Source: a virus
Taxonomy: Duplodnaviria > Caudoviricetes
Strand: one strand, 5' to 3'
IMG/VR virus record: IMGVR_UViG_3300049194_000074
Coordinates: 1-24,075 of that record
DNA: 24,075 nt
Shown: one piece after another, positions 15,679 through 22,994 of the stretch
Position numbering within the stretch: the stretch's first letter is position 1
Layout: every line of letters starts with the position of its first letter
Translations under genes and position numbers: made by a program
Notes under the pieces: generated by a model
What the model was told of the DNA's origin: nothing
The model's database searches: none
Seen by the model: only the letters and a program-made list of their open reading frames with translations

Positions 15679-15804
15679 GGGCCCTCCGTCTTCAATTCGA
15701 AAGAAGCCGCCCGACGGGCGTCTAAGAATCCACGGCCACACCGGTGGCGCATAATGGAAACGACCAGCAAGGAGACCGCTTTGACGATCACCGGAGGCTG
15801 CCTG

Positions 15805-16122
15805 ATGGCCGACCCCGCCGACACGCCACCACAGCGCCAAGAACACCAAGGCACCCTCGCCGACCTGCGCAAGCGCGCAGGCATCACCCAGGCGCAAGTC
15901 GCACAAGCCATGAACATCAGCCGCGTCCAGGTCAGCCGCATCGAGGCCCGGTTCCCCGGCGTGCCCCTCGTCAGCGCCCTCGCCTACCTCAAGGCCATCG
16001 GAGCCGAGGACGTCGTCCTCAGCCACCCACTCCTCGGCGAGATCCCGATCACCGACGTCTCACCCGACCCGGCCCGGCAAGAGGCCCTCGAACGCCGCCG
16101 CGCCAGCATGAAGAATCTGTAG
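15805..16122 (+). CDS. XRE-family helix-turn-helix protein (105 aa), opposite orientation to the late genes
   Basis: LADLRKRAGITQAQVAQAMNISRVQVSRIE; GGAGG before ATG 15805 (alternative in-frame TTG at 15781 after AAGGAG). Confidence 0.85.
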   Translation: MADPADTPPQRQEHQGTLADLRKRAGITQAQVAQAMNISRVQVSRIEARFPGVPLVSALAYLKAIGAEDVVLSHPLLGEIPITDVSPDPARQEALERRRASMKNL

Positions 16123-16504: not shown

Positions 16505-18013
16505 TCACCTCAGCACCCGGATCCTCGGCTTCGCCCCGTTGAAGTAGGCCAGCAGCAACGCGTCCGCGTTGTCCGGCGACCGCCCGATCCGCTCACGGAT
16601 CTTGTCCTTCGGCTCCACGATGATCCGCCCCTTGGTGTCCAGCTCCCAGCGGGGAACCAGCAGCTGAGCCGCCGTGATGTCACCGTTGTCCATCCGCGAC
16701 AGATCCCAGCCACCCTGAGCCGACAGCTCACGGCCGATCGTCCACCACATCTCCGCACGGAGATTGGCGAACTTCTTCTTGTCGCGCGGGTTCTCACTGA
16801 CGTTCACCCCGATGATCCGGGCACTGTGCTCCCCCCGCGACGCGGCGTTGCGCAGCTCACCGATCACACCGAACCCGACACCGATCGAGTCGATCTTCAC
16901 CGCCGTCGCACCCGACTCACGAATCGCCCGCAGCACCAACGGCGCGATCTTCTCCGGCCGGTCCGTACGGATCCGCCACTCACGCCCCGCCAGCACACCA
17001 CGCCGCTCCCGGACCACCGTCTCGTCCAGACCACCACCGACGTCCACACCCAGCTCAACCGGCGACAGATCAGCAGGGGAATACACGGCCTCGGTGTCCG
17101 TCCGGCACGTCGCCACATCCGAAGAACGCACCACCGTGTCCGCCGCGTCAAGCGTGAACTCACCCTCGACCTTCGACCGGAACAACGCGTTCTCGGTACC
17201 CCACTCGGTCTTCTTCTCCTCGACCCACTCTTTCGAGATGAGCGAGACAGCCACAATCTCCGGAACCTTCTCACCGGTAAAATTCGGCGTGTCATACGCC
17301 GAAATCCGCACCGAGTTCCACCCCGACCCCGGCTGCGACACCTTGTAGAAGTGCGTCGCCGAGTTATCAGGGTTCCCGATAGCCAGAATGCGACACCACG
17401 GACCCGTCGTAATCGCCTCAGCACCGATCCACAGCGACTCCGGAATACCACACGCCTCGTCCAGAACCACCAGAACATACGGCGCGTGAATACCCTGGAA
17501 AGCGGACTCGTCCGCATCCGCAGGCTTCCGGCCGAAAGCGACGAGTTCCTCATCGATCAGCCACTCGACCTGATTCACACGACCCGGCAGACCAGCCGAC
17601 TTATGCATACGCCGGATGTACCGCCACAGAATCGCCCGCACCTGAGCCGACGTCGGCGCCGTCGTCACCACGAACGCCTCACCCGGCGGGTGAGCATCCA
17701 GCCACCAGCTCACCACCAGCGAGGCCACGTGGCTCTTCCCGGCACCGTGGCACGACCGAACGGCCGTCTTGCGGTGATCCCGGACGCTCTCCATGATCTC
17801 CCGCTGCTTCGACCAGACCATCTGCCCCAGCCGGTCCTGCACCCACGACGCCGGATTCTGCGCCCACCGATCCGCACGCTCCGACGCCTGCCGCCGGTCC
17901 ACCGCAGCCTTCAACTGCGCATGCACCAGCTTCAACCGCTTGGTGTCACCGGTGCGAACCAGCCGGTCGACCTGCGCCTTCAGCTGCGCGATGTCGAGCT
18001 GCTGCTCAGTCAA
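16505..18013 (-). CDS. terL: Terminase large subunit (502 aa)
   Basis: Walker A-like RSCHGAGKS, Walker B LVVLDEA, IGNP coupling motif, nuclease GVDVGGG, KIDSIGVG, FANLRAE, SPDNADAL; TTG start overlapping the upstream gene. Confidence 0.95.
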   Translation of the reverse strand: MTEQQLDIAQLKAQVDRLVRTGDTKRLKLVHAQLKAAVDRRQASERADRWAQNPASWVQDRLGQMVWSKQREIMESVRDHRKTAVRSCHGAGKSHVASLVVSWWLDAHPPGEAFVVTTAPTSAQVRAILWRYIRRMHKSAGLPGRVNQVEWLIDEELVAFGRKPADADESAFQGIHAPYVLVVLDEACGIPESLWIGAEAITTGPWCRILAIGNPDNSATHFYKVSQPGSGWNSVRISAYDTPNFTGEKVPEIVAVSLISKEWVEEKKTEWGTENALFRSKVEGEFTLDAADTVVRSSDVATCRTDTEAVYSPADLSPVELGVDVGGGLDETVVRERRGVLAGREWRIRTDRPEKIAPLVLRAIRESGATAVKIDSIGVGFGVIGELRNAASRGEHSARIIGVNVSENPRDKKKFANLRAEMWWTIGRELSAQGGWDLSRMDNGDITAAQLLVPRWELDTKGRIIVEPKDKIRERIGRSPDNADALLLAYFNGAKPRIRVLR

Positions 18014-19146: not shown

Positions 19147-19182
19147 GACGGTTCTCCTGGTGATGAGGGAAAGCAAAAGAAC

Positions 19183-19256
19183 TGGCAGGAGCTGGAGGAG
19201 TCGAACCCCCGATTGCCGCTTTGGAGACGGCCGTGTTGCCGCTACACCAAGCCCCC
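19183..19256 (-). tRNA. trnW: tRNA-Trp (anticodon CCA), 74 nt, with encoded 3' CCA
   Basis: GGGGGCT/AGCTCCT acceptor stem, GTGT/ACAC D-stem, GCCGT-CT-CCA-AA-GCGGC anticodon arm, GGGGG-TTCGACT-CCTCC T-arm, discriminator G then CCA. Confidence 0.95.
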
Positions 19257-19271
19257 GAGAAAGCAGGGAAA

Positions 19272-19433
19272 ATGAGCAGTCACTGGAAGTTCGAGGTCCA
19301 CGTCAAGACACCCGGCGAGAGGGACGATGAAGAGGCGACGGTTCAGCTGCTCGTCGACCTGATCCGGGCCACGACAGGACGCGTCGCCCGCGATGACCTC
19401 GCCATCACCGTCGGCGACTTCGAGCGGAACTAG
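19272..19433 (+). CDS. Hypothetical protein (53 aa)
   Basis: MSSHWKFEVHVKTPGERDDEEATVQLLVDLIRATTGRVARDDLAITVGDFERN; AGGGA upstream; GC-rich third positions. Confidence 0.6.
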   Translation: MSSHWKFEVHVKTPGERDDEEATVQLLVDLIRATTGRVARDDLAITVGDFERN

Positions 19434-19498
19434 CGCCGCCAGCCGGACAGCGCGATGAGTCCGACCCCAATCAGCAGAATGATCTGGAACAGGGACAC
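19430..19498 (-). CDS. 22-aa single-TM hydrophobic peptide (not in the ORF track)
   Basis: GGGAGGT RBS, GGAGG 5 nt before GTG; MSLFQIILLIGVGLIALSGWRR; TAG shared in a CTAG overlap with the convergent gene. Confidence 0.55.
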   Translation of the reverse strand: MSLFQIILLIGVGLIALSGWRR

Positions 19499-19521
19499 AA
19501 CGACCTCCCAAAGGAGCGGTG

Positions 19522-19677
19522 ATGGGTAGGTGCCGCAAGGCGTCGAAGAGACGTCGTCAGCCGGAGTGTTCTTGGTGCGAGCACACCGTCCGTCGTGGTG
19601 TCGAGCAGCACCTGAAGAGGTGCCAGGTGTTCAGACGGGAGCAAGATGAGGAAGATCAAAAAGCGGAGCCTGCGTAA
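19522..19677 (+). CDS. Small C2HC Zn-finger-like protein (51 aa; not in the ORF track)
   Basis: AAGGAG RBS; MGRCRKASKRRRQPECSWCEHTVRRGVEQHLKRCQVF... (CxxC...HxxxC). Confidence 0.6.
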   Translation: MGRCRKASKRRRQPECSWCEHTVRRGVEQHLKRCQVFRREQDEEDQKAEPA

Positions 19678-19789: not shown

Positions 19790-19805
19790 GGCCCTGTCAA
19801 CCCTG

Positions 19806-19853
19806 GGTTTACTGAAGTTACAGTAAGCTGCCTTACAGAGACTTCAGTCAACC
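19806..19853. repeat. AT-rich imperfect inverted repeat, candidate recombination (lox-like) or operator site
   Basis: GGTTTACTGAAGTTACAGTAAG-ctgc-CTTACAGAGACTTCAGTCAACC; 18 of 22 positions symmetric; directly upstream of the recombinase operon. Confidence 0.7.
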
Positions 19854-19865
19854 GAAGGTAGACAG

Positions 19866-20144
19866 ATGCAAGTCAACCCTGAGCCTCTGAAGATCGTCAC
19901 CCATCGAGCAGGCGAGGATCCGCCGAAGCCGTTGTTCATGGTCGATCGGATCTTCTCGCAACGCACGGGCCATGTGCGCCGGATCAGCGTCCATCGAGAT
20001 GGCTGCCCGCGCACGCCACGCGACTGCTATCCGAAGCCGCGAAGCAGCGAATGGGTGGCGGTCGCCCTGGCGAAGGCCGACGAGCACGGCGCGGAGCAGG
20101 CGATTAGCTGCCCTGTGTGCGGAGGATGGTCGGTGAGTCCATGA
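19866..20144 (+). CDS. Hypothetical metal-binding protein (92 aa) coupled to the recombinase
   Basis: AAGGT RBS; HRDGC...CPVC; ATGA overlap with the recombinase start. Confidence 0.7.
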   Translation: MQVNPEPLKIVTHRAGEDPPKPLFMVDRIFSQRTGHVRRISVHRDGCPRTPRDCYPKPRSSEWVAVALAKADEHGAEQAISCPVCGGWSVSP

Positions 20145-21178
20145 CCGCTCTCGTTAGGATCGCTCCTGACGAAGAATCTGACGACCTGTCAGTCTTTCGT
20201 CCCGAGCGGCGTGCCCGGCTGACCGGTCAGGCCAAGGAGTGGCTGCACAAGTCCGTCCCTAAGGAGACGTTCAAGGCGTACAAGCGCGAATGGGACAAGT
20301 TCCTCGCGTGGTGCGCGTACAACGACGTCGGCCCACTGCCGGTCCTCTCGGACCACCTGACGAACTGGGTCGCCGAGCGCGCGAACGCCGGACACTCGAT
20401 CAGCATCATCGAGCAGGGCATCTCGGCCGTGGTCTTTTTCCACGACCAGTACAACGTCGCCGAGAAACACATGCCGGACCGTACCGATGCCTGGCGGGTG
20501 CTCAGCGCGTACCGGCGTTCGCTCATCGACTCCGGCTGGCGTCCGGACGAGGCCGCCACCTACACCGTCGACCAGCTGCGGGCGATGGTCGCGACGATCC
20601 CCGATGACACCGCTCTCGGGATCCGGGACCGGGCCGCGCTGCTCGTCGCCACCGGGGCGTTCGCACGCCGGTCCCAGCTCGTGGGCCTCGACATCGGGGA
20701 CACCCACTTCAGCCGGGGCCGCGTCGTTCTGCACATCGTGAAGAGCAAGGAAGACCAGCAGGCGCGCGGGCGCAAGCTCGTCATCGACCCCGGCGCGCAT
20801 CCGCAGTCCGACCCTGTCGGGGCGCTGCGGGAGTGGGTGAACACCCTCAGTGCCCGAGGCATCCGTAGCGGTCCGTTGTTCCGGCAGACGCGGACGAACA
20901 CCACGCCGCTCGGGTACAGCATCCTCGACTACCGGCTGGAGGGCCGGTGGCTGGGCCGGGTGGTGAAGAACGCGGTCCGGGAGGCGGGTATCTCGGCGCC
21001 GTCGGGGCGTACCTACCGGGCGCACTCGACGCGGGCGTCGGGGGCGACGATGGCGTTCCGTGCGGGCAAGCCGTCGGCGGCCATCGCCGCTCATGGCGGG
21101 TGGTCGCCGAAGGGGACCCAGCATCACACGTACAACAGGCCGGAAGACCAGGAGAGCGTGACGGAGGGGCTGTTGTAG
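20141..21178 (+). CDS. Cre-like tyrosine recombinase (345 aa)
   Basis: N-terminal TFKAYKREWDKFLAWC; RDRAALL...ARRSQL (Arg), KSKEDQ (Lys), GPLFR, HSTR (HxxR), GGW (Trp in place of the second His, as in Cre), HTYNR (Tyr). Confidence 0.9.
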   Translation: MTALVRIAPDEESDDLSVFRPERRARLTGQAKEWLHKSVPKETFKAYKREWDKFLAWCAYNDVGPLPVLSDHLTNWVAERANAGHSISIIEQGISAVVFFHDQYNVAEKHMPDRTDAWRVLSAYRRSLIDSGWRPDEAATYTVDQLRAMVATIPDDTALGIRDRAALLVATGAFARRSQLVGLDIGDTHFSRGRVVLHIVKSKEDQQARGRKLVIDPGAHPQSDPVGALREWVNTLSARGIRSGPLFRQTRTNTTPLGYSILDYRLEGRWLGRVVKNAVREAGISAPSGRTYRAHSTRASGATMAFRAGKPSAAIAAHGGWSPKGTQHHTYNRPEDQESVTEGLL

Positions 21179-21235: not shown

Positions 21236-21274
21236 GAAGAGGCTCTGTCGCTGTGGTGGCGACAGAGCCTCTTC
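21236..21274. terminator. Strong hairpin between convergent genes, probable terminator
   Basis: Perfect 16-bp stem GAAGAGGCTCTGTCGC-tgtggtg-GCGACAGAGCCTCTTC; GTTTGT follows on the plus strand. Confidence 0.8.
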
Positions 21275-22934: not shown

Positions 22935-22994
22935 CACCCCATGAGATGGGGTGGGTACACCGCATGATGGTGTGCCCACCCCATCTGATGGGGT
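22935..22994. promoter_or_regulatory. Nested palindrome array in a divergent promoter region
   Basis: 26-bp arms at 22936-22961 and 22969-22994 (24/26 symmetric), each containing ACCCCAT-N3-ATGGGGT. Confidence 0.7.

Follow-up and report, generated by a model that had tools for sequence, protein, structure and literature searches.

The window, i.e. the whole 24,075-bp stretch of DNA analysed in this work, is a fragment of a tailed-phage genome with a GC content of 65%. Genes for the tape measure protein, the capsid protein, a ClpP-type protease, the portal protein and the large terminase subunit (terL) occupy its minus strand, and a tRNA-Trp gene is located at 19183-19256. The best matches of terL among cultured phages were found in Arthrobacter phages (40%). 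Between terL and a gene for a 203-aa protein, presumed from its position alone to be terS (its PHROG match carries another label), there is a short plus-strand island with a symmetric site and the gene of a tyrosine recombinase (Table 1). The perfect inverted repeat beyond the recombinase gene is likely, as judged by its position, to act as the terminator of this operon.

Contigs from RNA libraries span the symmetric site in all four runs, and tell neither strand nor level. In DNA and RNA runs, the tRNA-Trp segment (19147-19271 and 19309-19420) was swapped out in strain variants, and single-base variation was concentrated at 19467-19660, with none listed within the site or the recombinase gene.

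Table 1. Positions of the genes and sequence elements of the recombinase locus in the window
Feature	Position	Strand	Remarks
Terminase large subunit (terL)	16505..18013	-	phrog_2, E 1.6e-34; 25% identity to P1 PacB over 243 aa, E 1e-13
Whole symmetric site, 72 bp	19794..19865		34-nt arms, 79% complementary; centre CTGC
Left flanking palindrome, TGTCAAC-N5-GTTTAC	19795..19813		both boxes of high information content
Core in the loxP frame, 34 bp	19813..19846		13-bp arms, 10/13 symmetric; 8-bp spacer AGCTGCCT; predicted crossover site
Predicted strand-exchange region GCTGCC	19827..19832	+	asymmetric, 6 bp; cleavage positions inferred from Cre
Right flanking palindrome, GTCAAC-N5-GGTAGACA	19846..19864		outer box likely serves also as ribosome-binding site for the gene that follows
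92-aa HxxxC/CxxC protein	19866..20144	+	predicted metal-binding; variable passenger gene (probable)
Cre-like tyrosine recombinase, 345 aa	20141..21178	+	PF00589, E 3e-11; 21% identity to P1 Cre
Inverted repeat	21236..21274		perfect 16-bp arms (100% complementary), 7-nt loop; between convergent genes
Presumed terS, 203 aa	22291..22902	-	2.5-3.1 kb from the site; same position in G001, G003 and G004, 74-77% conserved

A Cre-like tyrosine recombinase

The length of 345 aa follows from the ATG start; an upstream GTG would give a protein of 353 aa. The recombinase aligns with Cre along its full length, and its residues R176, K203, H295, R298, W321 and Y331 correspond to R173, K201, H289, R292, W315 and Y324 of Cre in 15 of 15 alignment rows. 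This R-K-H-R-W-Y catalytic set was invariant in all 49 relatives that were aligned, out of 72 recombinase matches. When an AlphaFold model of the protein (pLDDT 88, residues 1-20 of low confidence) was searched with Foldseek, the top matches were all Cre (E 9e-13, TM 0.70-0.74), followed by the integron integrase IntI, XerA and lambda Int. According to this predicted model, the protein would consist of a core-binding and a catalytic domain with the Cre fold, the helical domain starting at residue 29. Neither the Pfam search nor the model revealed an arm-binding domain, a feature by which the consulted part of PMC8138268 separates arm-binding from simple tyrosine recombinases. The score of 37 bits against the NCBIfam XerC/XerD equivalog lies far below its cut-off of 330. 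A Cre-like nature of the enzyme is supported by its sequence and its predicted fold, and the preliminary description of this DNA, which had noticed an intact R-K-HxxR-W-Y set and no obvious arm-binding extension, was right on both points.

Architecture of the symmetric site

The site reached a dyad score of 20; when the window was simulated 100 times with a first-order Markov model, no score exceeded 15. The site had previously been described as an AT-rich dyad of 48 bp accompanied by an extra GTCAACC box at 19796. Such a dyad does exist at 19806-19853, and its GC content is 44% versus about 65% across the window; it is, however, merely the inner part of the 72-bp dyad, and the box, although present, is not an additional element but the left outer box of the same structure. 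The fragment proposed earlier for experiments, 19796-19853, would truncate the site, its right outer box being lost.

Since the lox site of P1 (NC_005856) shares the TA-A-N6 inner frame with our site, the predicted crossover core was placed at 19813-19846, and both spacers suggested before (GCTGCC or AGCTGCCT) agree with the loxP frame. Among relatives, the GCTGCC stretch is replaced by GATGCC, CCTGCG, CCTGAG and other variants. Conservation is highest in the core, 3-7 positions away from the centre, and in two boxes per side (17-23 and 29-35). The consensus of the flank is a 19-bp palindrome, TGTC(A/C)AC-N5-GTT(G/T)AC, which abuts each end of the 34-bp core, and in most relatives the first downstream gene begins directly after the right palindrome. 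A copy of GTCAACCCTG at 19872, considered as a further box, proved to be coding sequence for a conserved VNP motif.

Conservation of the site together with the recombinase

Searches with the protein and its alignment yielded 9 viral and 7 metagenome loci, plus phage Mwe-JY05. We left out L012 and L013 (protein identical to that of the window), L014 and L018 (no upstream DNA) and L008 (a duplicate of L007), which gave 12 relatives, seven of them close (68-76% identity) and five distant (31-48%). Phage ZL12 (25%) does not enter the counts either.

The seven close relatives for which upstream DNA was available all keep the whole 72-bp site, located 46-699 bp ahead of the recombinase match, and GTAA-N6-TTAC was invariant in 8 of 8 close loci. 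All five distant relatives have a core dyad RTAA-N6-TTAY with different arms, found by a pattern picked after the close cores had been seen. The arms are perfect over 17 bp in L011, where the dyad lies 3.3 kb upstream of the gene, and over 12 bp in L025, while 22 of 23 positions match in L010; in L007 and L009 perfect arms extend over only 6 bp, and 7 of 13 positions of the 13-bp arms are symmetric. The corresponding symmetry is 6-11/13 in the close relatives and 12-13/13 in L010, L011 and L025. No recombinase match was found close to eight further hits of the pattern (L021, L022, L032, L034, L036, L037, L189 and L190), which we rejected as chance.

The window and the genomes G001, G003 and G004 of close relatives each contain a single copy of the core, and no second copy of the site was found in these four sequences; one match with a single mismatch in G001 was no better than a reversed-pattern control. 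The extended core gave one site per record in 5 of 5 distant records, and zero in the reversed control. Changes on both sides were seen in 9 of 34 arm pairs, a control inflated by kinship among the sequences. Because the dyad travels with the recombinase in all 12 relatives with upstream DNA, and the core is single-copy, it is likely to be the cognate crossover site of the enzyme. This had been proposed in the preliminary description.

In L025 (Microcystis phage Mwe-JY05, PP395638.1), the Cre-like gene is unannotated and listed as a hypothetical protein. The 12-bp-arm dyad of this phage (2613-2650) lies 535 bp upstream of it, with two small genes between them and the portal gene next; as a phage in culture, Mwe-JY05 offers an opportunity to test the system. 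In L010 (3785-3845), each 23-bp arm holds a 12-bp palindrome of its own, so that the plan palindrome-core-palindrome recurs there in a different sequence.

Genomes and lifestyle of the relatives

The assemblies of G001 (116.7 kb) and G003 (111.6 kb) have repeats at their ends and count as circular, and that of G004 (104.3 kb) has none. In all three, the site and the recombinase lie between presumed terS and terL, 2.2-3.2 kb from terS. Each of these genomes has one PF00589 gene, and no serine recombinase was found in them. All three encode a ParA of the chromosomal, Soj-like type (E about 1e-62), and contain multiple copies of a parS 16-mer (24 in G001, 16 in G003 and 25 in G004), which match the consensus given in the consulted part of PMC2346475. 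The copies form near-identical, co-oriented arrays around parA (G001 91700-112381, G003 83440-98757, G004 22194-47532). Two profiles detected no ParB in the close relatives, and it is likely that these phages use ParB of the host. An analogous use of chromosome-type parS on phage DNA without a ParB of its own is described, in the part of PMC2731898 available to us, for phi29, where it shows that a lytic phage is able to use host parS sites; phi29, however, has five parS sites, and is linear and lytic, whereas the relatives have 16-25 co-oriented copies, ParA and a Cre-like system.

No parS was found in the window, a 24-kb fragment, and its lifestyle is therefore carried over from the relatives. 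Proteins identical to that of the window were found on contigs of 51 and 79 kb. G003 encodes its own DNA polymerase and primase, and no plasmid Rep detectable with Pfam was found among the 127 of its 173 called proteins that were scanned; with these genes present, and neither ParB nor Rep found, a plasmid state of the close clade is not proven. A relative of 48% identity, with the core, sits on the circular plasmid pRLB1-9.1 of Streptomyces sp. RLB1-9. The record G005, of the same length as this plasmid, gave a weak terminase match only and has no parS array. G003 also bears two Tad2-like anti-defence genes and a MazF-like gene (L039 4926-6944, 15348-15671).

Possible role in genome circularisation and dimer resolution

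On the analogy with Cre/loxP of P1, the recombinase and the upstream dyad probably circularise the incoming phage genome and resolve its dimers. In P1, Cre keeps the plasmid prophage monomeric, as stated in the consulted part of PMC2409434, and it is annotated as a cyclisation recombinase (NC_005856). The predicted fold, the catalytic residues, the linkage, the single copy and the genome context of the relatives were observed; binding, cleavage and biological role we infer. Two monomers would bind the 13-bp arms of the core, and strands would be exchanged across the asymmetric GCTGCC with a second copy of the same site, coming from terminal redundancy or from a dimer. Headful packaging would be indicated by the layout and by the similarity of terL to PacB. 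If the site is placed just past the packaging start, a terminally redundant particle would contain two copies of it, as would a dimer, and a unit circle would arise when these direct copies recombine.

The similarity to P1 (NC_005856) extends over several features: fold, size and Trp-containing catalytic set of the enzyme, lack of an arm-binding domain, a single upstream site with the TA-A-N6 frame and an asymmetric spacer, and a small gene between the site and the recombinase (the order in P1 is lox-cra-cre). Both sites are situated a few kb from packaging genes, P1 pac cuts occurring about 4 kb before lox, and both would have an operator beside them, though the C1 operator of P1, 44 bp from lox, is a milder parallel. 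On the other hand, the enzymes share only 21% identity, the 13-bp arms are imperfect here, and 19-bp palindromes directly abut both ends of the core; the host is of the actinobacterial type, and the relatives have host-type parS arrays and ParA without ParB. A point against the lox reading is that the arms of the core, in the close relatives and in L007/L009, are less symmetric than those of lox-type sites. According to the consulted part of PMC2409434, P1 loxP needs no accessory proteins, and PepA and ArgR have no regulatory effect on it. The imperfect core and the conserved flanks suggest that the system of the window may not be a simple stand-alone one.

One could alternatively regard the site as attP, and the enzyme as an integrase devoid of an arm-binding domain, the flanks serving as accessory arms for a core site of the host. 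Accessory boxes on both sides of a core do recall the organisation of attP. Simple tyrosine recombinases are known to mobilise some phages, as exemplified by IntBrujita in the consulted part of PMC8138268, and one Streptomyces relative was found on a 304-kb contig. Nevertheless, a pattern-limited search of GTDB genomes gave 98 candidate stretches, none of which held a relative, half-site scans of viral contigs returned only intact sites or low-GC chance matches, and no joint was present at the site among the contigs listed for eight runs. ParA and parS in the close relatives argue for an extrachromosomal state, and against this reading, which we consider unlikely. The tRNA-Trp gene was also examined as an attachment site and rejected, as G001 lacks it next to the site and strain variants have other DNA in its place.

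The flanking boxes and a putative regulator

Matches to the flank box with a score of at least 15 number 4-5 per genome in G001, G003 and G004, versus 0-2 in 15 simulations each; two of them in G003 and G004, and one in G001, are the flanks of the site itself. TGTCAAC was found upstream of the orthologous genes of DNA polymerase A and primase in all three genomes. At polA, the same palindrome supplies the -35 of a promoter-like element TTGACA-17-GA(T/A/C)AAT, and a further box follows 32 bp on, as compared with 34 bp across the lox core. Conserved clusters of TGTCAAC boxes are present at 65340-65440 and 82230-82360 of G003, and at the corresponding places of G001 and G004.

As boxes lie also upstream of the polymerase and primase genes, their binder is likely a protein other than the recombinase, and the 19-bp palindromes are likely bound by a separate, probably phage-encoded, dimeric regulator, which may gate recombination or control transcription only. 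The earlier idea that the dyad doubles as an autoregulatory operator has to be modified, as the boxes at polymerase and primase point to a different protein. DnaA-, GlnR- or PhoP-boxes are what we take to be conceivable readings of the flank boxes. Between the portal and terL genes, a gene for an HTH protein of the XRE family lies on the other strand (15781-16122) and is conserved in all three related genomes; when it was considered as a candidate for the box-binder, no boxes were found upstream of it in these genomes.

A tentative proposal, possible but rather doubtful at this stage, would be that the regulator of polymerase and primase binds also both edges of the core, and switches recombination with the stage of the life cycle. 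It might license the degenerate core for circularisation and dimer resolution, or block it so that concatemers survive for packaging. If true, nature would have made a Cre-type system switchable by having a transcription regulator read its symmetric accessory sites, and the phage family in question would partition by borrowing host ParB. A parallel is XerCD acting at cer and psi with PepA/ArgR, where the core is likewise accompanied by adjacent sequences, perhaps bound here too by a controlling protein; however, as described in the consulted part of PMC2409434, that system employs a pair of recombinases, and its accessory DNA, about 180 bp long, lies on one side only, and here there is one enzyme and short symmetric flanks.

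The recurrence of the flank boxes upstream of polA and primase, one polA box forming a -35, and the coincidence of the right end of the dyad with the operon start could also be taken to mean that the dyad is a region of transcription control only, and that the enzyme recombines elsewhere or mainly binds DNA. This appears improbable: the GTAA-N6-TTAC core persists in distant relatives without such boxes, its centre is asymmetric in the loxP frame and each genome has a single copy of it; the region yielded no sigma-70-type promoter, and all 49 aligned relatives retain an intact catalytic set.

The gene between the site and the recombinase

The small gene overlaps the recombinase gene as ATGA (20141-20144) and encodes an HxxxC/CxxC protein, just as described before. 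H43, C47, C82 and C85 are invariant in 12 of 12 members of its family, and metal binding is plausible on the basis of this motif. The family comprises 34 clusters at 50% identity, with one member from a Streptomyces isolate, and some members are fused to XRE or other HTH modules. No family in Pfam or PHROG matched the protein; its model (pLDDT 64) gave no PDB match at E<=0.001, and the Atlas matches were under 0.9.

This protein had been suggested to be an accessory factor, and a role as an accessory or directionality factor needed by the recombinase was weighed. Its sole support comes from linkage in two distant lineages: the gene is translationally coupled to the recombinase in the window, and in L007/L008 a homolog of 43% identity is coupled to a recombinase that is 48% identical. 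A profile search, however, found the gene beside the recombinase in those 2 of 13 loci only (absent from 11/13), and none of the five whole records, G001-G005, contains it. It is missing even in L009, whose enzyme is 89% identical to that of L007 and which has the same core. The slot between site and recombinase varies from 7 to 1046 bp and is filled elsewhere mostly by unrelated genes, e.g. one for a HIT hydrolase, and in L006 it has no gene at all; moreover, the domain occurs also fused to various HTH modules. We therefore regard a partner role as very unlikely. Being beside the recombinase in so few loci, the gene is probably a passenger, occupying a slot of variable content and comparable in this to cra of P1, with which the 92-aa protein shares no similarity.

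That the dyad acts as an RNA hairpin in the operon leader, hiding the ribosome-binding site of the first gene, is highly improbable: it does fold (-35.8 kcal/mol, z -3.6), reaches up to the start codon and has 80% of cells paired with G-U allowed, but folding is expected of any palindrome, some positions pair in 0/8 or 1/8 only, the 88 non-Watson-Crick cells comprise 25 G-U on the plus strand, 10 on the minus strand and 53 that are neither, conservation is arranged in blocks about 11 bp apart, and no Rfam match was found at the site.

Relation to known Cre-type systems

With its enzyme in the range of 300-400 aa, the system resembles Dre/rox, VCre, SCre, Vika, Nigri and Panto (PMC4957104) and the set of Jelicic et al. 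2023 (PMC10250229). These mined systems, as presented in the consulted parts of both papers, have a palindromic 13-8-13 site less than 1 kb away from the gene; the predicted site of the window lies at such a distance and agrees with this frame and spacer, its arms being less symmetric. In the same parts, mining of Cre-type pairs appears as routine, with about 50% success, and the pipelines accept at most 1-2 arm mismatches. The core of the window has three, and those of the relatives up to seven, so they would be missed by such pipelines. The words 'Streptomyces' and 'Actino' had no occurrences in the portion of the 2023 main text at hand (PMC10250229). In the accessible part of its supplement, four names and motifs were unmatched, and GTAAG gave five matches, the site being absent among the matches listed; as accessions are given there, a relative may be included. 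In a search poor in subscription journals, no paper on the lineage or the site was found.

Cre-type pairs as such are already known; what sets this one apart is that its core is imperfect and flanked symmetrically by operator-like sequences, and the context of parS arrays. The pair comes from an actinobacterial phage lineage and would escape standard palindrome mining, and its natural arm and spacer variants, which extend over 31-76% protein identity, are usable for work on specificity. Should the bare 34-bp core work, one more Cre-orthogonal candidate would be obtained, useful but routine. Should the flanks be needed, this would show a natural control of a Cre-type enzyme, not known for P1 loxP. 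The soil phage family, with genomes of about 110 kb, appears to join P1-like circularisation with host-type parS arrays.

Other elements near the presumed terS gene

A 26-nt inverted repeat (92%) with nested ACCCCAT/ATGGGGT palindromes was found at 22936-22994 of the window, with presumed terS on one side and a divergent gene pair on the other; G004 has a related palindrome, which G001 and G003 lack. The segment 23043-23815, which encodes a 181-aa membrane-like protein coupled to a 76-aa HTH gene of the Cro/C1 type, is shared with G004 only.
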